From Candidatus Rokubacteria bacterium CSP1-6 (GTDB taxonomy: Bacteria; Methylomirabilota; Methylomirabilia; Rokubacteriales; CSP1-6): a DNA stretch of 49,178 nucleotides. The notes below the pieces were generated by a model. The model was not told the DNA's origin. It searched no databases and saw only the letters and a list, made by a program, of their open reading frames with translations. Position numbers and translations under genes: made by a program. Below are positions 11,900 to 38,737 of the stretch, in pieces (the first letter of the stretch is position 1; every line of letters starts with the position of its first letter). Where the stretch lies: contig LDXP01000008.1 in assembly GCA_001443385.1 (NCBI GenBank), positions 1 to 49,178 of the forward strand. The letters are read 5' to 3'.

Positions 11900-13420
11900 A
11901 TGCTGGCCCGGGTGCTCTCGGCCGCCGTGACCGGGATCGAGGCCGCGCTCGTCTCCGTCGAGGTGGACGTCACGTCAGGCCTTCCCGCCTTCAACATGGT
12001 CGGGCTCCCCGATTCCACCATCCGCGAGAGCCGCGACCGCGTCAGGAGCGCCATCCGGAACGCGGGCTACACCTTCCCCATGGAGCGCATCACGGTCAGC
12101 CTTGCCCCCGCGGATCTCCGAAAGGAAGGTGCCGCCTTCGACCTCCCGATCGCCCTGGGAATCCTCGCTGCCACGGGACTGGTGAAGGGTGACGCCCTCC
12201 AGCGTTTCCTCCTGATCGGCGAGCTCTCCCTCGACGGCGAGGTCCAGCCGGTGCGCGGCGTGCTGCCCATCGCGCTCGCCTGCCGCCGCGAGGGGCTCGA
12301 CGGCCTCCTCCTCCCCGCCGCCAACTGCCGCGAGGCCGCCATGATCTCCAACCTCACGGCCCTCCCGCTCCGACGCCTCAGCGAGGCCGTTGAGTGGCTG
12401 GCCGGCGAGCGAACGATCGAGCCGGCGCGCGTGGACCCCGAGGCGCTGGCCGGTCAGGCGAGCGTGGACGACGTGGACTTCTCCGAGGTCCGGGGCCAGG
12501 CCCACGCCAAGCGGGCCCTCGAGATCGCCGCCGCCGGCGGCCACAACGTCCTCATGATCGGCCCGCCCGGCGCTGGGAAAACGCTGCTCGCCCGCCGGCT
12601 TCCCACGATCCTGCCCCCTCTCGCGCTGGAGGAAGCGATCGAGGTCTCCGCCGTGTGGAGCGTGGCCGGGCTCCTGGCTCCGAATGATGGGCTGCTGAGA
12701 GTTCGTCCCTTCAGGGCGCCCCACCACACGATCTCCGAGGCCGGGCTCATCGGCGGCGGGAGTGTTCCCCACCCGGGGGAAGTGAGCGTCGCTCATTCGG
12801 GCGTGCTCTTCCTCGACGAGATGCCCGAGTTTTCCCAGCACGTGCTCGAGAGCCTCCGCCAGCCCCTCGAAGACGGCGCCGTGGTCGTGGCGCGCGCCGC
12901 GGGGGCCTCGCGCTTTCCCGCCCGCTTCCAGCTCGTGGGCGCCGCCAACCCCTGCCGCCGGGGCTGCCCCAGCCTCCAGGCCTGCCTCTGCACTCCCGGC
13001 GAGCGCGAGCGCTACCTGGCCCGCCTCTCGCGCCCTTTGCTGGACCGGATCGACCTCCACCTGGACGTCCCGGCGGTCCCCTTCCGGGAGCTCTCCCGGG
13101 ACGCGTCCGGGGAAACGTCGGCGGCGATCCGCGAGCGCGTCCTCAGGGCGCGCGCGATTCAGGCGCAGCGCTTCACGAAATCGGCGGCCCGCGTGAACGC
13201 GCGCATGAGCGCCAGCCAGCTCCGGCGATTCTGCGCCATCCCCGCCGACGGGCAGAAGCTCCTCGCCCTGGCCGTCGAGCGGCTCGGGCTCTCCGCCCGC
13301 GGCCACGACCGGATCTTGAAGGTGGCGCGGACTATCGCGGACCTGGAAGGTCGTGAGACAATCGCGGCCGAGCACCTCGCCGAGGCGATCCAGTACCGTG
13401 GCCTGGACCGGTGGCTCTGA
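11900..13420 (+). CDS. comM: YifB/ComM Mg-chelatase-like AAA+ ATPase
   Basis: GLPDSTIRESRDRV, DLRKEGAAFDLPIA, GPPGAGKT, PFRAPHH, LFLDEMPEF, DRIDL, ARTIADL, EAIQYR. Confidence 0.95.
   Translation: MLARVLSAAVTGIEAALVSVEVDVTSGLPAFNMVGLPDSTIRESRDRVRSAIRNAGYTFPMERITVSLAPADLRKEGAAFDLPIALGILAATGLVKGDALQRFLLIGELSLDGEVQPVRGVLPIALACRREGLDGLLLPAANCREAAMISNLTALPLRRLSEAVEWLAGERTIEPARVDPEALAGQASVDDVDFSEVRGQAHAKRALEIAAAGGHNVLMIGPPGAGKTLLARRLPTILPPLALEEAIEVSAVWSVAGLLAPNDGLLRVRPFRAPHHTISEAGLIGGGSVPHPGEVSVAHSGVLFLDEMPEFSQHVLESLRQPLEDGAVVVARAAGASRFPARFQLVGAANPCRRGCPSLQACLCTPGERERYLARLSRPLLDRIDLHLDVPAVPFRELSRDASGETSAAIRERVLRARAIQAQRFTKSAARVNARMSASQLRRFCAIPADGQKLLALAVERLGLSARGHDRILKVARTIADLEGRETIAAEHLAEAIQYRGLDRWL
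13348..13420 (+). repeat. direct repeat copy 1 (comM 3' end, attL-like)
   Basis: 73 bp, 67/73 identical to 15403-15475. Confidence 0.92.
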
Positions 13421-13442
13421 GTGTCGGAATCTCTCCCGTTGG

Positions 13443-15335
13443 CTACCGCCGCTCAGCGGGACTTCCAGCCGATGTCGGGGGAGGCAGTTGTCCGGCGAGG
13501 CGCGGATTGAGGCGACGGAGAATTTCGGATTGCTCCTGGGCCGCGGCGGTGTTCCCCAAGGCCAGATATGCACGCGCAAGCCCGAGGCGTGGCAGCGGGG
13601 CATTCTGATAGAGCGCGATCGCGCGCTGGAAGTAGGGGATCGCGTCCATAGGCCTGCCGAGTTCGACCAGTGCTATCCCGAGGTGCGTGAGGGCGCCCAT
13701 GTGAGTCGGGTTCTGTCGGATAACCAGCTCCAGGTGTGGAACCGCCTCCCCGGGCTTTCGTTGTTGGACGAGGGCTTCACCCAGATAGGCCCTCGCGTCA
13801 ACATTCCCGGAGTCCTCTGAAAGGACCCGCTGGAAGTGTTCGCTGGCTCTCGCTGGGTCACCAACTCGCAGCAGGACGAACCCGAGGTTGTGGTGGGCGA
13901 CGAGGAGGTGGGGTCTGGACGCCACGGCGCGCTCAAAATGCTCGATCGCCCGGGGGAAAAGGCCGCGGCTGCCCAGGGCAACACCCAAGTTGTTGTGGCA
14001 CCACGCGCAGTCCGGGTCGATTTGCAGAGAATGGCTCCACAGCGTGTCCGGATCTCGCCAGATCTGCACCTGGTTCCAGGTGAGCGCCCCCAGCCCGATG
14101 ATCCAGGCTGCGGTAGCCGCCAGTGCCGCGCGCGCCAGCGGTCGAGTAAGTGAGCGACCGGTCGCGCCCCTGACCATGGCGGCCACCGCCGCCCCCGCGA
14201 GGAGGGTCCAGCCGAGACATGAAAGATAGCTGTAGCGGTCGGCGGCGAGTTGTCCGCCATCATGGAATAGGCCGCTCACCGGCAGCAACATCACAATGTA
14301 AGTGAGCCACACGGCCAAGCCGGCAGGCCACCGCCGCCGGAGCAGGAAGAACCCCGCGGAGAGAATTCCGACCGCGATTGCGCTCCCGAGGAGCGGCAGA
14401 GCCAGCGGGTCGACCGGCCCACGTAACTCGTACAAGGGTGAGAGCCCCTGGGGCAACACGGTCTTCCAGACATAGAAGCAGAAGCTCCAAAGCGCGATGG
14501 CCACACGGGAGAGGAGAGGCAACTTCTCTAGGGATGTCGGTGACGACCCAGTCCGCACCGCGTAAAGCGCGATGGCTCCTCCGATGAGGGACAGGAGGAG
14601 ATAGGGCACCTTCTCCTTCCACACCTGCCGGACTTGGGGAGCGAACCAGTCCCGCAACCGTCCACCGATGCGGCCGAGCGGGTACGCGTCGATCACAATC
14701 AGAACAAAGGGGAGCGTCATGACAATGGACTTCGACGCCAAGGCAAGAATGTAGCATCCCACCGAACTGCCCAGCCATCTTCGTCGTGTTGCGCCCTGCG
14801 CGTCGCACGCGTTCAGGTACGTCAGGATCGTAAGCAGGAAGAAGAGGCCCGAGAGGACGTCGCGGCGTTCCGTCACCCAGGCCACGGACTCTGCTCGAAG
14901 GGGGTGCAGAGCGAAGGAGAGTGCCGCCGTCGCCGCGCCCAAGCGAAGCCCGATCTCTCCAAACCCCGTCATGGCCTTTGCAAGCAGCCGGTAGGCCACG
15001 AAATAAAATGCTGCGGCGTTGGCGGCGTGGAGCAGGATGTTCGTGAGGTGATAGCCGATTGGGTTCATTCCCCACACGAGATAATCCAGGCCAAACGTAA
15101 TCCAGGTCAGGGGAATCCAGTGCCCCATGAGGAAGGTGGTGAACATCCATCGGAGTTGCTCCCAGCCGAGTCCCCGGAAGTGCGGGTTGTTGAGGAAGTT
15201 TGCCGAGTCGTCCCAGTCCAGGAATTGGTTCGGAAGCGCGGGGGAGTAAATGACGAACGTCACCACCCCAATGGTGATGGCAAGGCCACTCCGACCCAGC
15301 AAGGCAGAAACAAGACGAAGGACACTGGCCGCCAT
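13443..15335 (-). CDS. TMTC-like multi-pass membrane glycosyltransferase (GT-C fold) with C-terminal TPR repeats
   Basis: FLDWDD acidic motif, YHLTNILLH, HPLRAESVAWVTERRD, EKVP, ADRYSYL, W-x-D-x-x-T-L-W, then TPR repeats; GGAGGGA RBS before ATG 15335. Confidence 0.85.
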   Translation of the reverse strand: MAASVLRLVSALLGRSGLAITIGVVTFVIYSPALPNQFLDWDDSANFLNNPHFRGLGWEQLRWMFTTFLMGHWIPLTWITFGLDYLVWGMNPIGYHLTNILLHAANAAAFYFVAYRLLAKAMTGFGEIGLRLGAATAALSFALHPLRAESVAWVTERRDVLSGLFFLLTILTYLNACDAQGATRRRWLGSSVGCYILALASKSIVMTLPFVLIVIDAYPLGRIGGRLRDWFAPQVRQVWKEKVPYLLLSLIGGAIALYAVRTGSSPTSLEKLPLLSRVAIALWSFCFYVWKTVLPQGLSPLYELRGPVDPLALPLLGSAIAVGILSAGFFLLRRRWPAGLAVWLTYIVMLLPVSGLFHDGGQLAADRYSYLSCLGWTLLAGAAVAAMVRGATGRSLTRPLARAALAATAAWIIGLGALTWNQVQIWRDPDTLWSHSLQIDPDCAWCHNNLGVALGSRGLFPRAIEHFERAVASRPHLLVAHHNLGFVLLRVGDPARASEHFQRVLSEDSGNVDARAYLGEALVQQRKPGEAVPHLELVIRQNPTHMGALTHLGIALVELGRPMDAIPYFQRAIALYQNAPLPRLGLARAYLALGNTAAAQEQSEILRRLNPRLAGQLPPPTSAGSPAERR

Positions 15336-15402
15336 ATATCTCGAACTCCCTCCAGATGAGTGTAAGCCACACGCAGAGACATTCAAAGTATCATCGTCCC
15401 CC

Positions 15403-15475
15403 AGGTCGTGAGACAATAGCCGCCGAGCACCTCGCCGAGGCGATCCAGTATCGCGGCCTCGACCGATGGCTCTGA
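15403..15475 (+). repeat. direct repeat copy 2 (displaced comM 3' fragment, attR-like)
   Basis: Encodes the same GRETIAAEHLAEAIQYRGLDRWL* as the comM end, with 6 synonymous differences. Confidence 0.92.
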
Positions 15476-15502
15476 TGCCTGCGCGAGGAGGTAGAGGGAG
15501 GC

Positions 15503-16063
15503 ATGCCGCACCCGATGAAGCTCACCCGCGACGGGAGCGCGCTCATCGTGGTGGACGTGCAGGAGCGGCTCTTCGCCGCCATGGACGCCGAGCACCGGGA
15601 GGAAGTGGTCAAGAACCTCAAGGTGCTTGCGACGGCAGCCCGGCGACTCGGGCTGCCGACCCTGATCACCGAGCAGTACCCCGGGGGGCTCGGCCACACG
15701 CTGCCCGAGCTCAAGGAAGCGCTCGGTCCCGTCGAGCCGGTCGAGAAGGTGGCGTTCTCCTGCTGCGACGCCGAGGGGTTCAGTTCCCGGCTCAAGGCGA
15801 CCGGTCGGAGGCAGGTGATCCTGGCGGGGATCGAGGCCCACGTCTGCGTCCTGCTGACCGGCCTCGACCTCCTGGCGGACGGCTACACCGTGCACGTGGC
15901 CGCCGACGCCGTGACCTCGCGCACCCAGGGGAGCTGGCGGATGGGCGTGGATCAGCTCCGGCAGGCCGGCGCGGTGATCACCACGACCGAGAGCGTGCTC
16001 TTCCAACTCCTCCAGAAAGCCGACACGGACGACTTCCGCATCCTCGCCAAGCTGATCAGGTAA
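15503..16063 (+). CDS. isochorismatase-family hydrolase
   Basis: VVDVQERL, TEQYP..LGHT, EKVAFSC, GIEAHVCV, DAVTSR. Confidence 0.9.
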   Translation: MPHPMKLTRDGSALIVVDVQERLFAAMDAEHREEVVKNLKVLATAARRLGLPTLITEQYPGGLGHTLPELKEALGPVEPVEKVAFSCCDAEGFSSRLKATGRRQVILAGIEAHVCVLLTGLDLLADGYTVHVAADAVTSRTQGSWRMGVDQLRQAGAVITTTESVLFQLLQKADTDDFRILAKLIR

Positions 16064-16491
16064 TGGCCCGCTACTTCGACATCCGCTCCACGATCCTCAT
16101 CGTGGTGGGGTACGGCATCCTGCCCGAGGAGGAGGATCGGCCCATCGCATACGAGCTGAGGCGCCTCGTCAACACGCGCGGCGCAGGGGCCGAGAACCGG
16201 TCGGCGGTGGTCCTCACGGACATGTGGGTGATGAATCAGGAGATGGCCGAGTTCTTTCCCGCCATCGCCATCGGCGGTCCGGGCGTCAACGCCTTCACGG
16301 CTCAGATCTACGAGGACCTGCCGGTGGCGTTCACGCGGGACCAGCAGCTGTTCATCCAGATGAACCCGGAGTCCGGCAAGCGCGCCGCCATCTGGGGCAT
16401 GGATCACCGGTCCACGCGCGAGGCGGTGGACGTCTTCGTCAACGACGGGTTCCTGGACCGGTTCCTGGATCTGGTCTGGCGCCGCGCCTAG
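16063..16491 (+). CDS. hypothetical protein
   Basis: TAATG coupling with the upstream gene; typical codon usage; begins MARYFDIRSTILIVVGYG. Confidence 0.75.
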   Translation: MARYFDIRSTILIVVGYGILPEEEDRPIAYELRRLVNTRGAGAENRSAVVLTDMWVMNQEMAEFFPAIAIGGPGVNAFTAQIYEDLPVAFTRDQQLFIQMNPESGKRAAIWGMDHRSTREAVDVFVNDGFLDRFLDLVWRRA

Positions 16492-21193: not shown

Positions 21194-23107
21194 TTACTTC
21201 TTCTCGCCGAGATCCTCGAACTCGGCGTCCACCACATCTCCCTCGGGCGCCTTGGACTTGGCCTGGCCCGCCGCCCCGGCGTCGGTGCTCCCGGCGCCGG
21301 CCTTGGCCTGGGCCTCGCGGTACATGATTTCCGCCAGCTTGTGCGAGGCCTTCATCAGGTTCTCCTGGGCGCGCGTGATCCGGTTGATGTCGTCTCCCTT
21401 CAGCGCCTCGCGGGCCTCGTTGAGCGCGTCCTCGATCACCTTGCGCTCGCCCTCCGGAACCTTGTCGCCGTGCTCCCGCAGGGTCCGCTCGGTCGTGTAC
21501 ACCAACGAGTCCGCCTGGTTGCGGACCTCGATCTCCTGCCGGCGCTGGGCGTCCTCCGCCGCGTGCGCCTCCGCCTCCTTCATCATCCGGTCGATCTCTT
21601 CCTTGGTGAGCCCGGACGAGGCCGTGATCGTGATGTTCTGCTGCTTGCCCGTCGCCGTGTCCCGGGCCGAGACGTTCACGATGCCGTTCGCGTCGATGTC
21701 GAACGTCACCTCGATTTGCGGCACGCCGCGCGAGGCCGGTGGGATCCCGACCAGGTGGAACTTGCCCAGCGTCCGGTTGTCGCGCGCCATGGGCCGCTCG
21801 CCCTGCAGCACGTGCACCTCCACCGACGTCTGGTTGTCGGCGGCGGTCGTGAAGATCTCGGACTTTTTCGTCGGGATCGTGGTGTTGCGTTCGATGAGTC
21901 GGGTCATCACGCTTCCGAGCGTCTCGATGCCGAGCGACAGCGGCGTGACGTCGAGCAGGACCATGTCCTTGACGTCGCCGGTGAGCACGGCGGCCTGGAT
22001 GGCCGCGCCGACGCCCACGACTTCGTCCGGGTTCACGCCCTTGTGGGGCTCCTTCCCGAAGAGGGCTTTCACCATCTCCTGCACCTTCGGCATCCGGATC
22101 TGGCCCCCGACCAGGATGACCTCGTCAATGTCCCGCGGGCTCTTGCCGGCGTCCTGCAGCGCCTGCCGGCACGGGCCGAGCGTGCGCTCGATCAGGTCGG
22201 CCACCAGCGATTCGAGCTTCGCGCGCGTCAGCGTGAGCACGAGGTGCTTGGGCCCGTTCGCGTCGGCCGTGATGAACGGGAGATTGATCTCGGTCTGGAG
22301 GGTCGTCGAGAGCTCGCACTTGGCCTTCTCCGCGGCCTCCTTCAGCCGCTGGAGCGCCATCCGGTCCCTCTTGAGGTCGATGCCGTTCTCACGCTTGAAC
22401 TCCTCGGCGATCCAGTCGACGACCCGCTGGTCGAAGTCATCGCCCCCCAGGTGCGTGTCGCCGTTGGTGGCCTTCACCTCGAACACGCCGTCGCCGATCT
22501 CCAAGATCGAGATGTCGAAGGTGCCGCCGCCCAGGTCGTACACCGCGATCGTCTCGTCCTTCTTCTTGTCCATCCCATAGGCGAGCGCGGCGGCCGTCGG
22601 CTCGTTGATGATCCGGAGCACTTCGAGGCCGGCGATCTGCCCCGCCTCCTTGGTGGCCTGGCGCTGGCTGTCGTTGAAGTACGCCGGGACGGTGATGACG
22701 GCCTTCGAGACCTTCTCGCCCAGGTAGGCCTCGGCGGCCTCCTTGAGCTTGCGGAGGATCATGGCCGAGATCTCGGGAGGCGAGTACACCTTGCCGCGCA
22801 CCTCGACGCGCGCGTCCGCGTTGTCGGTCTTGACGACCTTGTACGGGACGAGCTTGGTCTCTTGCAGCACCTCGTCGTGGCGGCGCCCCATGAAGCGCTT
22901 GATGGAAAAGACCGTGTTCTCGGGGTTGGTGATGGCCTGGCGTTTCGCGACCTGCCCGACCAGGATCTCGCCGTCCTTCGTAAAGCCCACCACCGACGGG
23001 GTGAGGCGGCTCCCCTCCTGGTTGGAGATGACCGTCGGGTCACCGCCTTCCATGACCGCCACCACGGAGTTCGTCGTCCCGAGGTCGATACCGATTACCT
23101 TCGCCAT
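21194..23107 (-). CDS. dnaK: molecular chaperone DnaK
   Basis: [45 protein letters not shown]. Confidence 0.98.
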
Positions 23108-26049: not shown

Positions 26050-27789
26050 ATGGCACAAAGCAAAGTCGGACAGCCAGTTAGCCGGCGCCTGGGGGATCTC
26101 CTCGTCAACGAGGGCCTCATCACCCAGGAAAATCTGCAACGCGCCCTCGCCGAGCAGAAGGGCTCGAACGAGAAGCTCGGCTCGATCCTCGTCCGGCTCG
26201 GGCTCATCCAGGAAGATCAGCTGATCGGCTTCCTCTCCCGCCAGTATGGCATCCCGTCCATCACGCTCTCCCAGCTCGACATCGACCCCGAGGTCGTCAA
26301 GCTCGTGCCGGCCCAGATCGCCAAGAAGTACGAGGTGCTCCCCGTCAAGCGCACGGGCAACGCCCTGACGCTGGCCATGGCCGACCCGACGAACGTCTTC
26401 GCCCTCGACGATGTCGCCTTCATGACGAACCTCCAGGTCCTCCCGGTGGTAGCCTCCCAGGGCGCCATCCGCCAGACCATCGAGCGCCTCTACGAGCCGC
26501 AGGCCTCCGCCTTCAGCGAGGTCATCACCGCCATGGAGGGGGAAGCCCCCGACGTGGAGCTCGTGGAAGGCGGGGAGGATGTCGCGCCGTCGAAGATCGA
26601 CATCTTCGAGCTGAAGGACGCGTCCGAGGAGGCGCCGGTCGTCAAGCTGGTCAACCTCATCCTGACCGACGCCATCCGCCGGGGCGCCTCCGACATCCAC
26701 CTGGAGCCGTACGAAAAGGTGTTCCGGGTCCGCTACCGCATTGACGGCGTGCTGCAGGAAATGATGGCGCCGCCGAAGCGGCTCGAGGCCGCGCTTCTCT
26801 CCCGCGTGAAGATCATGTCCAACTTGGACATCGCCGAGCGCCGGCTCCCCCAGGACGGGCGGATCAAGATCCGCTACTCGAGCCGGGAGATCGATCTCCG
26901 CGTCTCCACGCTGCCGACGATCTTCGGCGAGAAGATCGTGATGCGAATCCTCGACAAAGAAGCGCTCACGCTCGATCTGGCGAAGCTTGGCTTCGACGAC
27001 TGGAGCATGGAGAACTTCAAGAAAGTGATCCACCAGCCCTACGGCATGATTCTGATCACCGGGCCAACCGGGTCCGGCAAGACGACGACCCTCTACTCCG
27101 CCGTCCACACCATCAACTCGCCGGACATCAACATCATGACCGCCGAGGACCCGGTGGAGTACAACCTGAAGGGGGTCAACCAGGTCCAGGTCAACGAGGA
27201 GATCGGACGCACCTTCTCCGCGGTCCTCCGGTCCTTCCTCCGCCAGGACCCCGACGTCATCCTGGTGGGCGAGACTCGCGACCTCGAGACCGCTCAGATC
27301 GCCATCCGCGCCGCTCTCACGGGCCACCTCGTCTTCTCCACCCTGCATACCAACGACGCCCCCGGCACCATCGCCCGGCTCCAGGACATGGGGATCCCGC
27401 CATTCCTGGTGGCCTCATCCATCCTCCTGGTGCTGGCCCAGCGCCTGGCGCGCCGGGTCTGCAAGGAGTGCCGGGAGCCCTACGAGGTTGACGAGGAGAG
27501 CCTGACGCCCTACGGCCACGTCCCCCAGGGGCTGGGGAGGGTCACCCTGTACAAGGGCAAGGGATGCCAGGCCTGCAACTTCACCGGGATGAAGGGGCGA
27601 ACGGCGATGTACGAGGTGATGGTGGTCAGCAGCGAGATCCGGGAGCTGATCCTGCGTGGCTCCAGCACCACCGAGCTGCGCGAGCTGGCACAGCAGCAGG
27701 GGATGAAAACCCTCCGCCAGGCGGGGCTCTTGAAAGTGCTCGAGGGGGCCACCACGGCGGAGGAGATTCTCCGCGTGACGATCGGCTAG
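26050..27789 (+). CDS. pilB: type IV pilus assembly ATPase PilB
   Basis: MshEN-like RLGDLL..GLI motif, ASDIHLEP, ERRLPQDGR, GPTGSGKTT, LRQDPD, tetra-Cys motif. Confidence 0.96.
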   Translation: MAQSKVGQPVSRRLGDLLVNEGLITQENLQRALAEQKGSNEKLGSILVRLGLIQEDQLIGFLSRQYGIPSITLSQLDIDPEVVKLVPAQIAKKYEVLPVKRTGNALTLAMADPTNVFALDDVAFMTNLQVLPVVASQGAIRQTIERLYEPQASAFSEVITAMEGEAPDVELVEGGEDVAPSKIDIFELKDASEEAPVVKLVNLILTDAIRRGASDIHLEPYEKVFRVRYRIDGVLQEMMAPPKRLEAALLSRVKIMSNLDIAERRLPQDGRIKIRYSSREIDLRVSTLPTIFGEKIVMRILDKEALTLDLAKLGFDDWSMENFKKVIHQPYGMILITGPTGSGKTTTLYSAVHTINSPDINIMTAEDPVEYNLKGVNQVQVNEEIGRTFSAVLRSFLRQDPDVILVGETRDLETAQIAIRAALTGHLVFSTLHTNDAPGTIARLQDMGIPPFLVASSILLVLAQRLARRVCKECREPYEVDEESLTPYGHVPQGLGRVTLYKGKGCQACNFTGMKGRTAMYEVMVVSSEIRELILRGSSTTELRELAQQQGMKTLRQAGLLKVLEGATTAEEILRVTIG

Positions 27790-27852
27790 GCGACAGGCCG
27801 GAAACCCGGCACTCGGCGAATCTTCGACTTGAGAATAAAGGAACGGTGACAC

Positions 27853-28962
27853 ATGGCCGCGACGATGCACGAGCTGTTGACCATCCTGATCGACCGGGGG
27901 GGGTCTGACCTCCACCTCACGACCGGCACGTACCCCCAGATACGGCTGCACGGGAGGCTCGTCCCGCTGACCGAATTCGAAGTCCTGGCGCCGCAGGACA
28001 CGCAGCGCCTGGGCTACAGCGTCCTCAACGAAGGCCAGAAGCAGAAGTTCGAGGAGGAGAACGAGCTCGACCTGTCCTTCGGCATCCAGGGGCTGGCCCG
28101 CTTCCGGTCCAACGTCTTCCGCCAGCGGGGGGCGGTGGCGGCCGCGATCCGCGTGATCCCCTTCAAGATCCGCTCCTTCGACGACCTGGGGCTGCCCCCG
28201 GTGGTGGCGCAGCTCGCGGAGCGCCCGAAAGGACTCGTCCTCGTGACGGGCCCGACGGGCTCCGGGAAGTCCACGACGCTGGCGGCCATGCTCGACAAGA
28301 TCAACAACGAACGCTCGGACCATATCGTCACCATCGAGGATCCCATCGAGTTCGTTCACCAGCACAAGAAGTGCATGGTGAACCAGCGCGAGGTCACCTC
28401 GGACACCCACTCGTTCACCCAGGCGCTGAAGTACGTCCTCCGCCAGGATCCGGACGTCGTCCTGATCGGCGAGATGCGTGACCTGGAAACGATCTCCGCC
28501 GCCCTCACCATCGCCGAGACCGGCCACCTGACCCTGGCCACCCTGCACACGAACTCCTGCGCCCAAACCATGAACCGAGTCATCGACGTGTTCCCCCCCC
28601 ACCAGCAGCCCCAGGTCCGGTCCCAGCTCTCGCTGGTGCTCGAGGGCGTGCTCTCCCAGACCCTGATTCCCCGGGCCGACGGCAGGGGGCGCGTGATGGC
28701 GCTGGAGATCATGATCAACACCCCCGCCATCCGAAACCTGATCCGGGAAGAGAAGATCCACCAGATCTACTCCGCCATGCAGGCGGGGACGAAGTTCGGG
28801 ATGCAGACCCTGAACCAGTCCCTTGGCTCACTGGTCCAGCGGGGTCTTATCACCCGCGACGATGCCATGAACCGGTCGACGCTTCCCGACGAGCTCAACC
28901 AGCTCCTGTCCGGAATGGCGTCGCGCGTCGCGGCGGAAGCGACCCCGTTCGCGAGACACTGA
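27853..28962 (+). CDS. pilT: type IV pilus retraction ATPase PilT
   Basis: SDLHL, GPTGSGKST, TIEDPIE, LRQDPD, AIRNLIRE, GMQT. Confidence 0.96.
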   Translation: MAATMHELLTILIDRGGSDLHLTTGTYPQIRLHGRLVPLTEFEVLAPQDTQRLGYSVLNEGQKQKFEEENELDLSFGIQGLARFRSNVFRQRGAVAAAIRVIPFKIRSFDDLGLPPVVAQLAERPKGLVLVTGPTGSGKSTTLAAMLDKINNERSDHIVTIEDPIEFVHQHKKCMVNQREVTSDTHSFTQALKYVLRQDPDVVLIGEMRDLETISAALTIAETGHLTLATLHTNSCAQTMNRVIDVFPPHQQPQVRSQLSLVLEGVLSQTLIPRADGRGRVMALEIMINTPAIRNLIREEKIHQIYSAMQAGTKFGMQTLNQSLGSLVQRGLITRDDAMNRSTLPDELNQLLSGMASRVAAEATPFARH

Positions 28963-28978
28963 GGAGGAGGGAGTCGCG

Positions 28979-30192
28979 ATGCCGTTCTTCGCTTATCAGG
29001 GACGCACCACCCAGGGCTCCACCGCCGGCGAGATCGAAGCGCCCGACCGCACGGCCGCCGTCGCGGAGCTGCGCCGCAAGGCCATCCTGGTCACCCAGAT
29101 CAAGGAAAAGGCCGGCGGGCCGGCGAGGGCCGCCGGCGTCGGTGGGCGCTTCGGCGGCAAGGTCAAGGACAAGGAGATGGCGATCTTCACCCGCCAGTTC
29201 TCCACGATGGTGGACGCGGGGCTTCCCCTGGTGCAGTGCCTGACGATCCTGGCCGAGCAGAGCGAATCGAAGACCCTCCGCACGGTGACGTCCAGGGTGG
29301 CCGGAAGCGTGGAGGCGGGGTCCACCCCGCCGACGCCCTCCGGAGGCACCCGAAGACCTTCGACGAGCTGTACGTGAACCTGGTCGAGGTCGGAGAGGCG
29401 GGCGGTATCCTGGACACGGTCCTCCAGCGGCTGTCCGTCTACATCGAAAAGGCTGCGGCCCTGAAGCGGAAGGTCAAGTCCGCCATGATCTACCCCCTGA
29501 CCATCGTCGGCGTCGCGTTCATCGTGGTTATCTTCATGCTCACCTTCGTCATCCCGACATTCGCCAAGATGTTCGCCGGCATGGGGGCCGATCTCCCCCT
29601 GCCCACGCTGATCGTCATCAGGCTCTCCGACTTTGCGACCCGCTTCTGGTGGCTCATCCTCGGGGGCGCCATCGGCATCGTGGTCGGGATCCGCGCCTAC
29701 TACAGGACGGAGGGCGGGCGATCGCTCATCGACGCCCTCGTGCTCAAGCTTCCCGTGTTCGGCACGCTGATCCGAAAGGTGTCGGTGGCCCGCTTCACCC
29801 GCACCCTCGGCACGCTGGTCTCGTCCGGCGTCCCGATCCTGGAGGGTCTTCGCATTACCGCGCGGACGGCGGGCAACCGTGTCGTGGAGCGGGCGGTGCT
29901 GGAGACCCGCGCCTCCGTCACCGCCGGGAAGACGCTGGCGGAGCCGCTGAAGGCTTCCACGGTCTTCCCCCCCATGGTCGTGCAGATGATCTCGGTGGGC
30001 GAGCAGACGGGCGCCCTGGACGCGATGCTGAACAAGATCGCCGACTTCTACGACGACGAGGTGGACACTGCCGTCACCGCGCTCACGGCCCTGCTCGAGC
30101 CGATGATGATCGTGTTCCTGGGCGTGGTCATCGGCGGCCTGGTCATCGCCATGTACCTCCCGATCTTCAGGCTGGTGACCCTGGTCAAATAG
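28979..30192 (+). pseudogene. pilC: type IV pilus platform protein PilC, split by a 1-nt deletion near 29327
   Basis: N-half (FTRQFSTMVDAGLPL) and C-half (GEAGGILD..KVKSAMIYP..GEQTG) are in different frames; the junction TCCACCCCGCCGAC lacks one base of the expected GSTLADAL; could be a sequencing error. Confidence 0.85.
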
Positions 30193-30195
30193 CGA

Positions 30196-31842
30196 GTGGC
30201 AGTGCTCGAGGTCCCCAACCTCTCGGCAGTCCTACGCGGACTCAGCGTCGCGCGGCTGCTGGCGGCCGGCCTGCTCCTGGGCATGGGGGCCCTCCTCAGA
30301 CTGTGGGGAAGCCTCCTTTACCCGTTCCTTCCCTTCGCGCTGTGCCTCGCCGGCGCCGGGACGGCGTCGGTGATCTTCCTCCTCCTCCAGCCCGCGGCGG
30401 GAAACCTGCGGCGCTTCGCCTGGCTGCAGCTGATCCTCGACAGCCTGGTGGTGACGGCCATCGTCGCGTTCACCGGCGGGCCCCGGAGCATCTTCACATT
30501 CCTGTACGTGCTCGTCGTCACGGCGGCCTGCGTGGTGCTGGCGCGCCCGGGAGGGCTCGCCATCGCAGCCCTGTCCAGCCTCCTGTACACGGCGCTCGTG
30601 CTGAGTCGTACCGCGCTCTCCCTGCTCGTCGAGCCCACGGAAACGACCGCCCTGGAGGTCATGACGATCTTCCTCAACACGGCGGCCTTCCTGGTCGTCG
30701 GCGTCCTCGCCGGATCGCTCGGGGAGCGGTACCACGTCATGCATCGCGCCCTGGCGGACCAGAGCAAGGACCTCTCCGACCTCCAGGCCTTCAAGGACCT
30801 CATGTTCGAGTCCCTGGGCTCCGGCCTCGTCGGGATGGACCTCGAGCGGCGAATCACGGCCCTCAACCGCGCCGCCGAGGAGATCACCAGCTACCAGGCG
30901 GCCGAGGCCGTGGGACGCCGCTGGGAATCCGTCTTCGGTGACGGGATCCCCCCGGACGAGATCGACCTCGCCGCGCGCGTCGAGGGCTGGCAGGTCCGGC
31001 GCTACGAGATGCGGCTCCGGCGCAAGGACGGGCGGGAAGTTCCCCTGGGAATTTCGTTCTGGCCCCTCCGATCGGGCCGGGGAGAGCTGGCCGGCATCAT
31101 CGGCGTCTTCCAGGATCTCTCGAGCATCAAGCAGATGGAGGAGCGGATGCGCCAGGCGGACCGCCTCGCGACCATCGGGCGCCTGGCGGCCAACATCGCC
31201 CACGAGATCCGGAATCCGCTGGCGTCGATGTCGGGCGCCATCGAGGTGCTAACCCGGGAGCTGCCCCGCGGCGGGCCCCATGACCGTCTTATCGAGATCG
31301 TGCTGCACGAATCGGATCGGCTGAATCAGATCGTCAAGGAGTTCCTCGAATACGCGCGTCCGGCTCCCCTGCATCCCCTGCCGATGAACGTGGGGGAGGT
31401 GCTCGACGAGGTCCTGCTGCTGCTCGAGCACCGGGCCCTCCCCCCGGATCTGAAGATCGCGCGGGAGTACGACGGCACGGCGACCGCGCGCGTGGACCCC
31501 CAGCAGTTCCGCCAGGCCATCTGGAACCTCTGCATCAACGCCCTGGAGGCCATGCCGGCGGGAGGAGAGCTCCGCATCGGGGCCGGGATCGTGACCCAGC
31601 GGAAGACCAGGAAGCTGGAGGTTTGGGTGGCCGACACCGGAACCGGGATCGACCCGGAGAGCCTCCTGCACATTTTTGAGCCCTTCTTTTCCACCAAGCC
31701 CGCGGGCAGCGGGATCGGCCTCGCGCTGGTCCATCGGGTGATCCAGGACCACGGCGGCGACATCGAAGTGCGAAGCGAACCCGGAGTCGGGACGACGTTC
31801 ACCCTCCGGCTGCCCCTGGCCGAATCCGCCCGCGACGCCTGA
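30196..31842 (+). CDS. pilS: PilS-like sensor histidine kinase
   Basis: Multi-TM N-terminus, PAS-like region, AHEIRNPL, NALEA, DTGTG, FEPFFSTK, GIGL. Confidence 0.88.
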   Translation: MAVLEVPNLSAVLRGLSVARLLAAGLLLGMGALLRLWGSLLYPFLPFALCLAGAGTASVIFLLLQPAAGNLRRFAWLQLILDSLVVTAIVAFTGGPRSIFTFLYVLVVTAACVVLARPGGLAIAALSSLLYTALVLSRTALSLLVEPTETTALEVMTIFLNTAAFLVVGVLAGSLGERYHVMHRALADQSKDLSDLQAFKDLMFESLGSGLVGMDLERRITALNRAAEEITSYQAAEAVGRRWESVFGDGIPPDEIDLAARVEGWQVRRYEMRLRRKDGREVPLGISFWPLRSGRGELAGIIGVFQDLSSIKQMEERMRQADRLATIGRLAANIAHEIRNPLASMSGAIEVLTRELPRGGPHDRLIEIVLHESDRLNQIVKEFLEYARPAPLHPLPMNVGEVLDEVLLLLEHRALPPDLKIAREYDGTATARVDPQQFRQAIWNLCINALEAMPAGGELRIGAGIVTQRKTRKLEVWVADTGTGIDPESLLHIFEPFFSTKPAGSGIGLALVHRVIQDHGGDIEVRSEPGVGTTFTLRLPLAESARDA

Positions 31843-31853
31843 GGCATCCGACC

Positions 31854-33251
<1,398 letters not shown>

Positions 33252-33393
33252 CGTTTTTTGACGGGGCCGCCAACAGATTGCGTCAGCGTTCGGACCGGAA
33301 TCGACGCAGAGACTAGCCCGGGGTGGTTCCAAATCGCTCGTCTTTCCCACCACTTACCCTGAGAGCCGTCCACCGGAGCGTATCCCCGATCCC

Positions 33394-33409
33394 TGGCATC
33401 GAACCTGCA
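33394..33409 (+). promoter_or_regulatory. sigma54 -24/-12 promoter of pilA
   Basis: TGGCAT-CGAAC-CTGCA; TGACG repeats and a TGCGTC/GACGCA dyad at ~33249-33308 upstream; directly after pilR. Confidence 0.72.
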
Positions 33410-33514
33410 GGATAACCGGGCAGGGATGAGGGAACTCATAGGCTCCCTCGAACGCTCGGAGGACAAAGGGTCCTCGGAATCCCTAAACCGAGAGAAAAAA
33501 GGAGGATGACTCAG

Positions 33515-33988
33515 ATGATGAAGTGGTGGAGGAAGCGGGTGACCTTCGGTAACCGACGGGGCTTCACGCTCATCGAGTTGATGATCGTGGTGGCCATCAT
33601 CGGGATCCTGGCGGCGATCGCGGTGCCGCTGTACCAGAACATCCAGTCACGGGCGCGGACCGCGAAGGCCCAGGCCGATACGCGCTCGATCGCCTCGGCG
33701 ATCGTCCAGTATTCCGCCCACTGCGGCGATTACCCAGCAAGCGCTGGCGATAGCTGCATGGGCCCCTTGCCGGGCGCTGGCGGCGCCCTCTATGCCGCGG
33801 GCGGCCTGACTGGGGTGGTGACCAATTCTGGCAACCAGACGGCTGGCCCGTTCTTCTCGGCGAATCCCGTTCCCCCCGCCGGCTGGGGCGCAGCCTATCT
33901 CGTCGCGTACCCGGCGCCAGGCACGTTCTCGGTCACCGCGACCCCGACCAACGGCGACAACAGCGGCAACCCGGTCGTAGCTCCGTAG
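33515..33988 (+). CDS. pilA: major type IVa pilin
   Basis: G|[22 protein letters not shown]; own sigma54 promoter and terminator; GGAGG RBS favours ATG 33515 (ORF opens at 33506). Confidence 0.9.
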
Positions 33989-34012
33989 CTGAGACCGCAA
34001 GCCCAAACGACG

Positions 34013-34046
34013 GAGGGGAGGCCAAAATCTGGCCTCCCCTCTTTGT
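34013..34046 (+). terminator. intrinsic terminator after pilA
   Basis: GAGGGGAGGCCA-aaatc-TGGCCTCCCCTC followed by TTTGT. Confidence 0.75.
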
Positions 34047-34117
34047 CTCCCGGGTGGGGCTGCTGGAAAGGACCCCCCCACTGTGATAGAGGACAGAGAG
34101 GATGGAGGAGGCTCCGC

Positions 34118-34240
34118 GTGGCGCGGTTCGTGCACCGAAGAGGCCCTCGCGGCTTCACGCTCATCGAGCTTCTGGTCGTCGTGGATATCATCGGGATCCT
34201 GGCGGCCAGCGGCGACGGAACCGTGGTGACGGTGCCGTGA
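34118..34240 (+). CDS. head-less micro-pilin or internally deleted pilin remnant (40 aa)
   Basis: GGAGGAGG RBS, GTG start, MARFVHRRGPRG|FTLIELLVVVDIIGILAASGDGTVVTVP*. Confidence 0.6.
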   Translation: MARFVHRRGPRGFTLIELLVVVDIIGILAASGDGTVVTVP

Positions 34241-34262
34241 GGCCCGCGGTGGCGAGGAAGGC

Positions 34263-35027
34263 ATGATGGTGGCGGGTGCCCTCGCGCTGGGAGGAATCGT
34301 GGGGAGCTTCCTCAACGTCTGCGCCTCGCGCCTCCCCAATGGGAGAAGCCTCTGGAGGCCCGGCTCGGCCTGCCCCGCCTGCGCGCACCCCATCCGCTGG
34401 TACGACAACGTGCCCGTCCTCAGCTTTATGGTCCTCCGGGGGCGTTGCCGGGACTGCCGCGCGCCTATCGCGTGGCGGTATCCGGGCGTGGAGTTCGGAA
34501 CGGCGCTGCTCTTCGCCCTCGCCTACGTCCACCTCGGGCTCGGCTGGGAGCTGGCCCTCGCCTTCGTCTTCCTTTCGGCGCTCATGGTCATCACGGTCAT
34601 CGACCTCGAGCACCAGCTGATCCCGGACCGGATCACCCTGCCGGTCATCGCGGCCGGCTTTCTGGCCAGCGTGGTCCTGGGCCGGCCCTCCTGGCCCCAT
34701 TCGCTCCTGGGCATCGTCGTGGGCGGAGGAATCATCTACGCGATCATCCTGGGCAGCCGGCTGGTCATGGGGGTGGAAGGGATGGGCGGAGGCGATATCA
34801 CGCTTGCCGCCATGCTCGGCGCGTTTCTCGGCTGGAAACTTTTGCTCCTCGGCCTGTTTCTGGCGGTGCTGCTCGGAGCCGGCGTTGCCGTGGCGCTCCT
34901 GGCCACCGGCCGGAGAGGCGGGAAGGATCCGATCCCCTTCGGCCCATTCCTGGCCTTGGGGGGCGCGGTCAGTCTGTTTTGGGGGAAGGAGATCCTGCAA
35001 TGGTACCTCAGAGGATTCGTCGGCTAG
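34263..35027 (+). CDS. pilD: prepilin peptidase / N-methyltransferase
   Basis: GSFLNV, CPAC..YDNVP..GRCRDC, IDLEHQLIPD, GMGGGD, IPFGPFLA. Confidence 0.95.
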   Translation: MMVAGALALGGIVGSFLNVCASRLPNGRSLWRPGSACPACAHPIRWYDNVPVLSFMVLRGRCRDCRAPIAWRYPGVEFGTALLFALAYVHLGLGWELALAFVFLSALMVITVIDLEHQLIPDRITLPVIAAGFLASVVLGRPSWPHSLLGIVVGGGIIYAIILGSRLVMGVEGMGGGDITLAAMLGAFLGWKLLLLGLFLAVLLGAGVAVALLATGRRGGKDPIPFGPFLALGGAVSLFWGKEILQWYLRGFVG

Positions 35028-35485
35028 ATCGGGGAGGCTGGAGCCTCCTGGAACTCTTGGTGGTGGTCGCCATCATCGGGATTCTCGCCGCGATCGCGAT
35101 CCCGCTGTTCGCCAGCTATTGGCGGAGCGCGGCGGTCAGGGCGGGAGCCCAGGAGATGCGCACCGCCCTGCTCCAGGCCAAGCAGCTCGCCATCACGCGG
35201 CGCCAGCCCATCTGCGTCCTGCCCGTCGCAGCTCCCGTCAACGGGTACCAGTTCCGCCAGAACAACTGCGCTGGCGCGGTCGTCCCCCTCCAGTTCACGC
35301 CCGGGGCCTTGGCGGGGGGAACCTTCCGCCTCCAGAACAACGTCACGGTCGCCGCCCTCGCAGGGCCCCCCGTCTTCACCCCGCTCGGCGCGGCCGCCCC
35401 GGGCGGACAGTTCCGGGTGACCGGCCCGAGCGGCGATGCCCTTACCATCACGGTCTCGGCGGCCGGTCGCGTCACCTCCCCTTAG
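35000..35485 (+). CDS. fimT: FimT/GspH-like minor pilin
   Basis: G|[50 protein letters not shown]; AAGGAG RBS inside the pilD end. Confidence 0.78.
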   Translation: MVPQRIRRLDRGGWSLLELLVVVAIIGILAAIAIPLFASYWRSAAVRAGAQEMRTALLQAKQLAITRRQPICVLPVAAPVNGYQFRQNNCAGAVVPLQFTPGALAGGTFRLQNNVTVAALAGPPVFTPLGAAAPGGQFRVTGPSGDALTITVSAAGRVTSP

Positions 35486-35496
35486 AACCTCGGGCC

Positions 35497-35531
35497 AAAG
35501 AGGGCCGGAGACCGGGTCTCCGGCCCTCTTT
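35497..35531. terminator. bidirectional intrinsic terminator-like hairpin
   Basis: AAAGAGGGCCGGAGACC-g-GGTCTCCGGCCCTCTTT. Confidence 0.7.
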
Positions 35532-35535
35532 GAAT

Positions 35536-35652
35536 CCTGTCAGTAGCAAGACACCCTCTCAGACACCTGTCAGTATCCCTTGCCTCTCCTCGGCCGGGCG
35601 CCCCCGGAAACCCCTTGGTATGTCATCTCTATGGCCTGGCACATGCGATGCA
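35536..35652 (+). promoter_or_regulatory. sigma54-like promoter with tandem CCTGTCAGTA sites
   Basis: TGGCAC-ATGCG-ATGCA at 35637-35652; CCTGTCAGTA at 35536 and 35566. Confidence 0.55.
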
Positions 35653-35851
35653 TTCCCATCGTCCGAGAGTCTGGGACTGATGGCAGCGACTCACAGAACG
35701 AACCGGGCCGACGGCCGCCCTGCAGGGACCTGGGGGCGTGGATCCTCAGGCCGGCCCCATCCACCCCTCCGCGTCGAAAACCCCTAGCCATTGCCCCTCC
35801 CCGGGCAACCCTCCAGTCCCCGTTGTGGTAAGGGCAATGTCCAGAGAAAAG

Positions 35852-35881
35852 TTGACTTTAAAAAATCGAACTACCTATAAT
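35852..35881 (+). promoter_or_regulatory. sigma70 promoter of pilMNOPQ
   Basis: TTGACT-N18-TATAAT within an AT-rich tract. Confidence 0.65.
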
Positions 35882-35987
35882 TACTGCAATTCGACATTTC
35901 CGCTTATTTTAAAAGGGGTTCTCTTATCCTCAGTTCGGGGCCGATCCGGCCGGGTCGGCAGGGAGTAAAGGAAGAGGGTTAGGGGCG

Positions 35988-37055
35988 ATGGGATTGTTTT
36001 CCACCAAGAAGACCGGTTTTGGTCTGGATGTGGGATCGAGCGCGGTGAAACTCGTCCAGCTGCAGGAGGGCTCGAAGGGCTTCACGCTCGAGACCTTCGC
36101 GATGGTGGAGCTTCCGCCAGACGCCATCGGCGAGGGCATGATCAAGGACCCCCCGGTGGTCGTGGACGCGATCAAGGAGGTCGTGAGCAGGGCGGGGGTC
36201 AAGACCAAGGACGCCGTCCTCAGCGTCTCCGGCCGCGAGCTCATCATGAAGAAGATCCAGCTCCCCAAGGTCACCGCGAAGGAGTTGGGCGACGCGATCA
36301 TGCTGGAGGCCGAGCATCACATTAACCTTCCCATCGATGAGGTCTACCTGGACCACCAGGTCGTGGGACAGTCGGCCGGCCAGGGCGGAACGATGGACGT
36401 GATGCTGGTCGCCGTCAAGAAGAGCAAGATCAACGAGTACGTGGCGGTGGTGGAGGAAGCGGGGCTCACGCCGGTCGTGGTGGACGTGGACGCCTTCGCG
36501 CTCCAGAACCAGTACGAGATGAACAGTCCGGAGACGACGGCGGAGGCGGTGGCGCTGATCGACATCGGTGCCTCGATCATGAAGACGAACGTCGTCCGGG
36601 GAGGGGTTTCGATCTTCGCCCGCGACATCGCTTTCGGCGGGAACAATTACACGCGAGCGATCTCCCAGCGGCTCAACGTCCCCTTCGACAGGGCCGAAGC
36701 CGCCAAGAAGGGGGAAGAGGTCCCGGGCGTCCGCTGGGACGACCTCGTGCCGTCCCTCGAAGCGGTCTCCCGCGAGCTGTCGCTGGAGATCCAGCGCACC
36801 TTCGACTATTTCGCGTCCACGGCCGAATCGGAGCGGATCAGCCGGATCGTCCTCTCCGGGGGCTGCGCCAAGCTCTCCGGGATCGACGAGTTCCTCTCCT
36901 CCAGCTGGGGAATCCCGGTGGAGGTGGTCAAGCCGTTCCAGAACGTCCAGTTCGATCCAAACCGGTTCCCCGCCGATGACCTCTACGCGGCAGGCCCCCT
37001 GCTGGCCGTCGCGGTCGGGCTCGGGATGCGACGCGCGGAGGACAAGCCCGCATGA
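35988..37055 (+). CDS. pilM: type IV pilus assembly protein PilM
   Basis: GLDVGSSAVKLV, VDVDAFAL, IDIGAS, LSGGCA, AVAVGLGMR. Confidence 0.95.
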   Translation: MGLFSTKKTGFGLDVGSSAVKLVQLQEGSKGFTLETFAMVELPPDAIGEGMIKDPPVVVDAIKEVVSRAGVKTKDAVLSVSGRELIMKKIQLPKVTAKELGDAIMLEAEHHINLPIDEVYLDHQVVGQSAGQGGTMDVMLVAVKKSKINEYVAVVEEAGLTPVVVDVDAFALQNQYEMNSPETTAEAVALIDIGASIMKTNVVRGGVSIFARDIAFGGNNYTRAISQRLNVPFDRAEAAKKGEEVPGVRWDDLVPSLEAVSRELSLEIQRTFDYFASTAESERISRIVLSGGCAKLSGIDEFLSSSWGIPVEVVKPFQNVQFDPNRFPADDLYAAGPLLAVAVGLGMRRAEDKPA

Positions 37056-37603
37056 TTAAGATCAACCTCCTCCCGGCGCGCCCGCGCAGGCGGTTCGCGA
37101 TCGCGCTCCCCACCCTGCCGGGCCTCGGCCTGCTCTTCGGGGTCGTCTACGTCGTCGTGATCGTGGCGGTCGTCGGCTACTGGGTCTACCTGAACAACCA
37201 GGGCAACTCGCTCACAGCGGAGATTGTCCGCCTGGAGGCCGAAACGGCGCGGCACAAGGCGTCCATCGCCGAGGGCACGCGGTTCAAGAAGGAAAAGGAG
37301 GACCTGGAGCGGCGCGTGGCGCTCATCGACCTCATCGCCCGAAACCAGGCCCGCCCGATCTACCTCATGGACGCTCTGGCGGACACAGTTCCCCAGGACA
37401 TCTGGCTCACGTCGGTGGAAGAGAAAGAGCAGGTGCTGAAGATCGCCGGCTCGGCGTTTTCCACGACGGCGGTGGCCGACCTCATGTCGAACCTGAAAAA
37501 TTCGGGAAAGTTCAGGGACGTGGACCTGATCGTCTCCAGGCAGGACCTGGCCAAGACACCCCGGGTGGTGACCTTCGAGGTCACCTGCCGCTTCAGCATC
37601 TAG
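37052..37603 (+). CDS. pilN: type IV pilus assembly protein PilN
   Basis: MIKINLLP motif, TM, coiled coil, PQDIWL. Confidence 0.93.
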   Translation: MIKINLLPARPRRRFAIALPTLPGLGLLFGVVYVVVIVAVVGYWVYLNNQGNSLTAEIVRLEAETARHKASIAEGTRFKKEKEDLERRVALIDLIARNQARPIYLMDALADTVPQDIWLTSVEEKEQVLKIAGSAFSTTAVADLMSNLKNSGKFRDVDLIVSRQDLAKTPRVVTFEVTCRFSI

Positions 37604-37607
37604 GCCC

Positions 37608-38725: not shown

Positions 38726-38737
38726 GGGAGGACAGCG

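Follow-up and report, generated by a model that had tools for sequence, protein, structure and literature searches.

Behind comM in the window analyzed here, the 49,178-nt stretch of contig C8 from the metagenome-assembled genome (MAG) of Candidatus Rokubacteria bacterium CSP1-6 (hereafter G000; 2.88 Mb, 91% complete), a single, apparently foreign gene lies between two copies of the comM 3' end. We suggest, with moderate confidence, that this islet reflects a recombinase-free acquisition that was anchored by homology, the incoming DNA having come from a donor whose comM is followed by another gene. The proposal builds on the structure of the islet, on empty sites in relatives, on the polarity of the two copies, on the recurrence of the arrangement in other genomes, on a duplication of variable length and on a lack of recombinase genes. 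How single genes are gained without the machinery of mobile elements is poorly understood, and the mechanism behind insertions with long target duplications is itself unsettled. Here the two copies carry different alleles, the functional one is foreign and the unit ends at the stop codon, and capture from a donor is therefore favored over target duplication. ComM acts in natural transformation, and a recurrent slot for defense and cell-surface genes beside a transformation gene, in an uncultured soil phylum, would provide a concrete and testable model.

The comM Islet and Its Two Gene Ends

The islet and its immediate surroundings comprise the following features (coordinates of the window).

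11900..13420, plus strand: intact comM, encoding a 506-aa YifB family Mg-chelatase-like AAA+ ATPase; Pfam Mg_chelatase, ChlI and Mg_chelatase_C
13294..13347, plus strand: comM stretch just 5' of the repeat, which may belong to the imported tract; G000-specific sites at 13294, 13330 and 13336
13348..13420, plus strand: left repeat copy, the working comM end (about the last 24 codons plus stop), probably donor-derived
13421..13442, no strand: 22-nt spacer from the comM stop to the cargo stop, the genes being convergent (reading of the sequence)
13443..15335, minus strand: cargo gene, 630 aa, with a predicted multi-pass, GT-C-fold glycosyltransferase (PMT-like) N-terminus and C-terminal TPR
15336..15402, minus strand: 67-nt AT-rich (49% GC) stretch 5' of the cargo gene, up to the right junction
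15403..15475, plus strand: right repeat copy, an orphan comM 3' end and native remnant
from 15476, plus strand: native 27-nt spacer with ribosome-binding site (RBS) after the orphan
15503-16063, plus strand: isochorismatase-family hydrolase, native; Pfam Isochorismatase
16065-16491, plus strand: 141-aa open reading frame (ORF), native, 3' of the isochorismatase gene

The comM product belongs to the YifB/ComM family over its full length (NCBIfam TIGR00368, 612 bits at a cut-off of 362) and shares 95%, 95% and 91% amino acid identity with its counterparts in the same-genus relatives G003, G002 and G001, respectively. A repeat search returned a single 73-nt direct repeat with 67 of 73 positions identical (92%) and a start-to-start distance of 2055 nt; in the alignment, homology begins abruptly at the A of AGGTCG, runs through 15 identical nt and stops at the TGA. 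All six mismatches are third-position and synonymous in the comM frame (ATC/ATA, GCG/GCC, TAC/TAT, CGT/CGC, CTG/CTC, CGG/CGA), an outcome with a probability of about 0.005-0.007 if the right copy is modeled as free to decay and the left copy as taking synonymous changes only. GC content is 0.629 in the insert vs. 0.722 for comM. On the repeat flanking one oppositely oriented, AT-richer gene, as on the purely synonymous mismatches, repeat search, alignment and composition thus agree with the initial annotation of this DNA. Its suggestion of a reduced island is unlikely, given that the 2055-nt unit holds one gene and just 89 nt of non-coding DNA.

Independent Logan contigs from four runs (X5, X6, X7 and X11), none of them marked as a possible source, were used to check the assembly, and 20 of 24 listed runs contain at least 79% of the words sampled from 12900-15900. 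Single contigs from X6 (13246-15900, zero differences) and X7 (12900-15682, three differences) carry both copies and the whole insert, contigs from X11 span each junction separately, and the overlap across the right junction in X5 amounts to exactly 31 letters. Because contigs from independent runs cross both junctions, a MAG-assembly chimera is excluded for the G000 window, and with it the strain-chimera artefact that the initial annotation had named as a possible refutation.

Relatives show what the site looks like without the insert. In G003, G001, G010 and G014, comM is succeeded after about 21-27 nt by the isochorismatase gene and the 141-aa ORF, and the same empty order is found in G160, G157, G155 and G135. 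The 73-nt repeat is single-copy in each relative compared; in G002 the comM end is divided between two contig ends with a 30-nt overlap, and the second contig continues into the native spacer. As relatives carry an empty comM-isochorismatase site, the insert is the derived state.

The two copies also differ in their affinities. After the right copy comes the RBS-bearing spacer that the relatives also have, and this copy is 98%, 94% and 93% identical to same-genus comM ends, vs. 93%, 92% and 92% for the left copy. The codons ATA GCC are found in the right copy and in seven of seven close relatives, and ATC GCG in the left copy only, which further displays a unique CGT and a CTG shared with other genera; CGA is the single change unique to the right copy, which has TAT in common with G002. 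With left alleles foreign to the genus, and a right copy that is genus-like and contiguous with the native RBS, the orphan therefore represents the resident comM end and the working end of the gene is foreign to the genus. Most likely, then, the incoming DNA brought its own comM end, as had been proposed in the initial annotation. The gene as a whole is a recombination mosaic in this genus, divergence from G002 amounting to 1-3% at nt 601-1200 and to about 10% at nt 1-600 and 1201-1350.

Recurrence at the comM 3' End

To look beyond the genus, the last 70 aa of ComM were searched against 251 genomes of the class, five unpublished genomes being counted in the recurrence tallies only. Matches were obtained in 213 of these, and 13 genomes contain two or more. 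A DNA search with the 73 nt among 159 genomes of the family had found two full copies in G000 only; the protein search indicates that this query was too specific, and the uniqueness of G000 was dropped. Seven further genomes carry orphan comM 3' ends, listed here together with three whose contigs break within the comM end.

G071: 189-nt repeat, 84% identical, with indels; cargo an Acyl_transf_3 protein; isochorismatase gene directly after
G101: 181-nt repeat with 79% identity and an in-frame TAG; a formyltransferase fragment as cargo
G234 and G237: repeats of 87 and 93 nt; cargo a type II methyltransferase and restriction enzyme (MTase_II; REase_II 395 bits)
G242: orphans of 106, 43 and 487 nt (three in all); one DUF5615/PIN-like and one nucleotidyltransferase/HEPN module as cargo
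G172: orphan 43.6 kb downstream, followed directly by isochorismatase gene and 141-aa ORF
G186: orphan located where a contig ends
G045, G082 and G109: contig breaks within the comM end

In G000, G071, G101, G234, G237 and G242 the orphan lies on the same strand 0.8-3.2 kb downstream of comM, and every insert is lower in GC than comM. Eight same-genus relatives of G234, G237 and G242, one of them a single-contig 2.75-Mb genome, have a single comM end. For the ends of two control genes, at least two matches were seen in 3 of 158 genomes (AroC) and 3 of 171 (AroB), among which no nearby pair was demonstrated, two of the six cases having been resolved. The orphan-end events span three families and, kin not being independent, were counted as at least seven distinct junctions. 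From these comparisons the comM 3' end is a recurrent slot, or hotspot, with differing cargo that includes restriction-modification (R-M), toxin-antitoxin-like and cell-surface genes. The comparison of the comM-isochorismatase interval that had been recommended at the outset thus yielded empty sites, alternative cargo and tandem comM 3' copies alike, and the notion of a swappable cargo slot stands in so far as it denotes a hotspot (seven other genomes with different cargo, one of them with three tandem orphans).

The junctions themselves vary. Duplicated lengths are 73, 87, 93, 106, 181, 189 and 487 nt (plus the 43-nt orphan of G242), with repeat starts 73, 88, 91, 107, 162, 188 and 488 nt before the stop codon. 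On the right, nearly all repeats run to the stop codon, to within 2 nt if G101 (+19) is set aside, and they end at the stop in five of six resolved genomes. No crossover core is shared across the independent insertions; the starts differ, so there is no common crossover point, and the variable length of the duplication argues against one fixed att core. The initial annotation had pointed to the 15-bp identical start as a core and to a dyad that overlaps the left copy, neither of which is sustained as a recombination core. The dyad (GACCT-gga-AGGTC, 13340-13352) has arms of only 5 bp, which by estimate is chance level, and in relatives the site reads GACCTGGAG/CGGTC.

Differences within the younger pairs are mostly synonymous (6/6 in G000, 11/14 in the 487-nt pair of G242 and 4/5 in G234), and the pooled 21 of 25 has a probability of 1.5e-5 to 4.7e-5 under in-place decay. 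Old pairs carry indels and a stop, as expected of dead remnants.

The absence of an encoded recombinase, as described in the initial annotation, extends beyond the islet. No recombinase or transposase Pfam hit was obtained among the 85 ORFs of at least 170 aa in the islet and 49-kb window at E 1e-10, nor was a recombinase found among the ORFs scanned in the other inserts (14 + 28 including the G172 region + 10). In the 91%-complete G000 genome the only recombinases detected are XerD and an XerC-like tyrosine recombinase, with no serine recombinase or resolvase-family (PF00239) hit, and nothing points to mobilization in trans by a dedicated recombinase, another of the options first considered.

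Several loci stand beside this series. The second ComM-end matches of G104 and G034 are weak and unrelated and were rejected, as was the 4.3-kb comM-isochorismatase interval of G007 (G007:C148:17500-26500), where the gene order is different and a second comM end absent; its genes encode a GAF-PAS hybrid histidine kinase, a thiolase-like protein and a ChsH2-like OB-fold protein. The 43.6-kb region of G172 (G172:C127:72000-116500) has a native-like GC of about 0.70 and encodes a PMT_2 glycosyltransferase, rhodanese, DsrE, sulfite-reductase-like and radical SAM proteins and a type I CRISPR-Cas system (Cas1, Cas7/DevR, Cas3). In G228 (G228:C8:110000-118500), sequence resembling the left ends of the G242 and G237 cargo directly follows the comM stop, with a nucleotidyltransferase/HEPN-like stretch 3 kb beyond and no orphan comM end detected, possibly representing a donor-type arrangement. 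In four MAGs the contigs break off inside the comM 3' end and overlap by 30 to about 138 nt (end of G002:C223 and start of C306; G045:C85/C107; G082:C382/C668; start of G109:C132), and in G109 the comM-end fragment and the isochorismatase gene are 1.5 kb apart; these may be unassembled cases of the same repeat structure, or strain mixtures.

Proposed Acquisition from a Donor and Competing Explanations

In the reading that we prefer, the donor would be a related lineage with a different gene directly behind comM. The incoming DNA would have comprised the donor comM 3' end and the PMT-like GT-C/TPR glycosyltransferase gene with its own upstream region, would have entered the resident comM by recombination at the conserved 3' end, and its far end would have been joined 73 nt 5' of the resident stop codon. 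The outcome would be an intact comM with donor-type last codons, followed by the cargo and then by the displaced resident end, a non-functional orphan on the native downstream genes. One-sided homology is to be expected from such an encounter, since few parts of comM are as strongly conserved as its 3' end and the sequence directly 3' of the stop varies among relatives; homology between donor and recipient, with their different downstream neighbors, would stop at the stop codon, so that the duplication ends there. The same process, repeated behind comM in the class, would have brought in the R-M, toxin-antitoxin-like and cell-surface genes. The homologous-recombination step is one that we infer, and the intermediate could have been either a linear fragment, joined homologously on one side and illegitimately on the other, or a circle entering by a single crossover.

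Foreign DNA anchored by one-sided homology has its precedents in homology-facilitated illegitimate recombination (HFIR) and single-crossover integration. In an Escherichia coli study, 56 of 60 recombinant clones gave a duplication-diagnostic PCR product, and the 14 clones reported as sequenced were gene-end duplications of 109-950 bp formed by single crossover (PMC3240628). HFIR has been invoked, in an account of Vibrio type VI secretion system arrays, for displaced effector 3' ends with orphan immunity genes, and likewise for Rhs arrays (PMC5361080). Unlike the islet, classical HFIR deletes recipient DNA and leaves no duplication, and the experimental cases lie outside this phylum.

A number of observations weigh against acquisition from such a donor, or at least against its simplest form. 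Among 35 G000-specific comM sites (differing from all three same-genus relatives), eight lie in the last 127 nt, three of them 5' of the repeat; this clustering (P 0.007 for those 127 nt and 0.09 as a scan statistic) is no more than a weak hint, and the sign of a donor tract reaching 5' of the repeat is correspondingly weak. The present cargo is known behind comM only once, and a donor with comM convergent to it was not found: a search of 41 relatives, 159 genomes of the family and GTDB contigs gave at best 63% identity over the N-terminal domain, with no match beside comM bar one in G034, which was rejected as donor as it is an unrelated paralogue (43% identity). About half of the G242 differences are unique to the orphan, so that part of the divergence arose in place. 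G234 and G237 share the exact right junction, yet each orphan resembles the comM end of its own genome, and a plain circle-plus-crossover would need crossovers in the first few bases, later gene conversion or one ancestral event. Two orphans, that of G000 and the 106-nt one of G242, have the start AGGTCG in common. Neither a circle joint nor a joint skipping the 2055 nt, as in a same-strain empty site, was seen in the Logan contigs of the four runs, contigs being a form in which rare variants are lost. Finally, the instances outside G000 are those of MAG assemblies, the comparison with independent assemblies having covered G000.

The R-M unit shared by G234 and G237 is 95.3% identical between them, vs. 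91.6% for their comM genes, and the flanks after the orphan are unrelated; this pattern fits either a horizontal spread of the junction-carrying unit or a single old event, after which gene conversion took place and the flanks were turned over. The same junction between unrelated flanks would also fit a bolder scheme, which we regard as doubtful, in which the comM 3' end serves as the portable homology arm of a recombinase-free cassette system. Recombination between copies would release units of cargo plus comM end in circular form, a single RecA-type crossover would bring them into other genomes, and R-M, toxin-antitoxin and surface-modification genes would thereby be stacked in arrays behind the gene for a transformation helicase in the (probably competent) Methylomirabilota.

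The first of the competing explanations, in our view unlikely, is a true long target duplication. Small R-M inserts flanked by direct repeats of 45-423 bp have been described (Furuta, Abe and Kobayashi, 2010; PMC2853133, citing Nobusato et al., 2000), and what that source relates of them resembles the present case: relatives have empty sites with the repeat in single copy, mobility genes are absent from the examples it covers, the GC content often deviates and some repeats overlap a gene 3' end. G000 has an empty-site relative that aligns on both sides, a repeat longer than 30 bp, no mobility genes and an insert smaller than 20 kb; paired R and M genes are missing from it and are present in G234 and G237. 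In such an event, cargo without any comM sequence would have been inserted by break repair or at a replication fork, doubling the resident last 73 nt, and the copies would have diverged later by allelic homologous recombination over the functional comM or by synonymous changes. The architecture equals that of the R-M insertions as portrayed there (PMC2853133), the G234 and G237 orphans each resemble their own comM end along the whole length, and the mosaic nature of comM within the genus would supply the allelic exchange. However, the left-copy-specific changes extend to 15-21 nt before the stop, where the allelic tract of a cargo-free donor would have to end, six of six synonymous differences have a probability of about 0.005 under in-place decay, and the ending of the unit at the stop in five of six resolved genomes is unexpected for a random target segment. 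The comM series further departs from the published insertions in that its cargo is mostly non-R-M, one gene end is hit repeatedly across three families, and the upstream copy is allelic, with synonymous differences that suggest an imported gene end.

Slightly less likely still is site-specific integration, by which the unit would be, or would derive from, an integrative element that has an attP imitating the comM 3' end, in the manner of e14 and icd, and that was moved by an integrase since lost or acting in trans. The topology is that of e14/icd/icdC: in the account of e14 and phage 21, a replacement 3' end keeps icd intact, the native end is left as the icdC pseudogene, and the differences between the copies are largely synonymous (PMC13626634). 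A sharp left boundary with 15 identical first bases, the AGGTCG start in two orphans and the one junction common to G234 and G237 would also suit this view, and comM is truly targeted by recombinase-bearing elements in the family: in G008 (G008:C10:26500-39500) the gene is split near its 5' end, residues 2-35 lying about 9.6 kb upstream of residues 29-504, and the 9.6-kb island in between, encoding a large serine recombinase of 609 aa (Resolvase, Recombinase, Zn_ribbon_recom) at its start as well as an AAA_25 protein, is a bona fide recombinase-borne insertion in comM, at another site. Yet e14 has its own integrase and site-specific excision, whereas the comM inserts scanned contain no encoded or linked site-specific recombinase and have no fixed boundary, the repeats starting anywhere from 73 to 488 nt before the stop; the genome offers only the XerD and XerC-like proteins mentioned above and no resolvase-family hit, and the 89 nt of non-coding DNA in the G000 unit leave no decayed remains.

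An assembly artefact, two strains having been joined chimerically through a shared comM end, would accord with the MAGs of G002, G045, G082 and G109 breaking exactly here and with a 93-nt, lower-depth X5 contig that represents another strain's comM end (C at 13348, like G001 and G002), but it is extremely improbable given the junction-crossing contigs of X6, X7 and X11 and a right junction where unique cargo sequence is joined to the repeat, a joint that shared k-mers cannot make.

Two other kinds of system invite comparison. Tn6022 (the AbaR backbone) and Tsy are described as possessing TnsF, a target selector related to tyrosine recombinases, to which Tsy adds the tyrosine recombinase YRec and Tn6022 the Tn7-type transposition genes, and as inserting at the Walker B motif, thereby splitting comM (PMC10293859). 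The target gene is the same, but here comM remains intact, the insertion in G000 follows the stop codon, the duplicated sites are the last 73-488 nt of the gene, and neither TnsF nor YRec is present. A limited full-text literature search retrieved no published account of orphan comM 3' ends. The minimal mobile elements of Neisseria consist of different whole-gene cargo between conserved flanking genes and are exchanged without dedicated mobility genes; they have homology on both flanks and lack gene-end duplicates.

The Cargo Gene and Further Observations

The cargo protein has Pfam TPR hits at aa 444-603. For aa 1-440 there is no Pfam match even at E 5, and searches of NCBIfam and of PDB sequences were also empty. 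In an AlphaFold2 model (pLDDT 89), residues 7-441 match the yeast Pmt1-Pmt2 structure best (Z 18.1, rmsd 4.7, 360 residues aligned), followed by Pmt4 (Z 17.5), which like it belongs to the protein O-mannosyltransferases of yeast; further matches, oligosaccharyltransferases among them, are AglB (17.4), STT3 (17.0), ArnT (15.4), PglB (15.1) and ALG12, over residues of about 7-450. The N-terminal domain is thus predicted to have the GT-C membrane fold. Foldseek returned TPR matches, which masked this domain. An hhalign comparison with the PMT_2 protein of G172 was not significant, PMT_2 clusters were suggested solely by an Atlas feature search, and sequence profiles do not place the protein in Pfam PMT_2 or TMTC_DUF1736; by its modeled fold it resembles a GT-C enzyme, and membership of a sequence family is unsupported.

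The gene appears to be foreign to G000 because its GC content at third codon positions is low (0.73 vs. 0.84-0.93 in neighboring genes) and because it is less similar to its best orthologues (58-59% identity over the full length) than these are to one another (65-72%). Its family is large in the lineage, with 5289 hits and up to nine copies per genome, and the source names of the homologues point to Rokubacteria/Methylomirabilota. The copy in the islet is the sole one in G000, no counterpart was found in three same-genus genomes (90-93% complete), and an ENA protein, P0001, is 98% identical to it, with a more distant relative, P0002 of NCBI, at 69%.

At 19 of 42 paralogue loci, those of the five best orthologues included, a type IV pilin-like N-terminus is encoded within about 1.5 kb, as scored by a motif that we take to define such N-termini. 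This association with pilin genes hints at a biological role, and by analogy the cargo protein may act in pilin glycosylation. A pilin-adjacent copy of the family seems to be lacking in the genus. In relatives, GT-C/TPR family genes are found directly behind such pilin genes. The window itself includes a type IV pilus cluster (26050-41125) encoding PilB- and PilT-like ATPases, PilC, a PilS/R-like two-component pair, a prepilin peptidase and PilMNOQ, and within it three pilin-like N-termini at 33560, 34151 and 35036 on the plus strand.

Signals for expression or for structured RNA were sought in and around the insert. No terminator-like site was found at 13421..13442, no promoter-like site in the region and, by a simple scan, no sigma-70-like site in 15336..15402; the region matched neither a tRNA nor, at E up to 0.1, any Rfam family. 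The orphan sits within a 65-codon open frame (15362-15475, plus strand), in which translation from an in-frame ATG would yield 38 aa, the last 23 of them ComM residues, with no sign that this frame is translated. A self-comparison of the G000 genome gave 33 ungapped direct-repeat pairs, among which no second pair is stop-ended and all-synonymous. Other direct repeats, with 95-97% identity and 1.3-8 kb apart, do not combine these two properties as the comM pair does and are located on C119 (771-954 / 2053-2236), C9 (45083-45588 / 47016-47521) and C37 (13481-13601 / 21612-21732).

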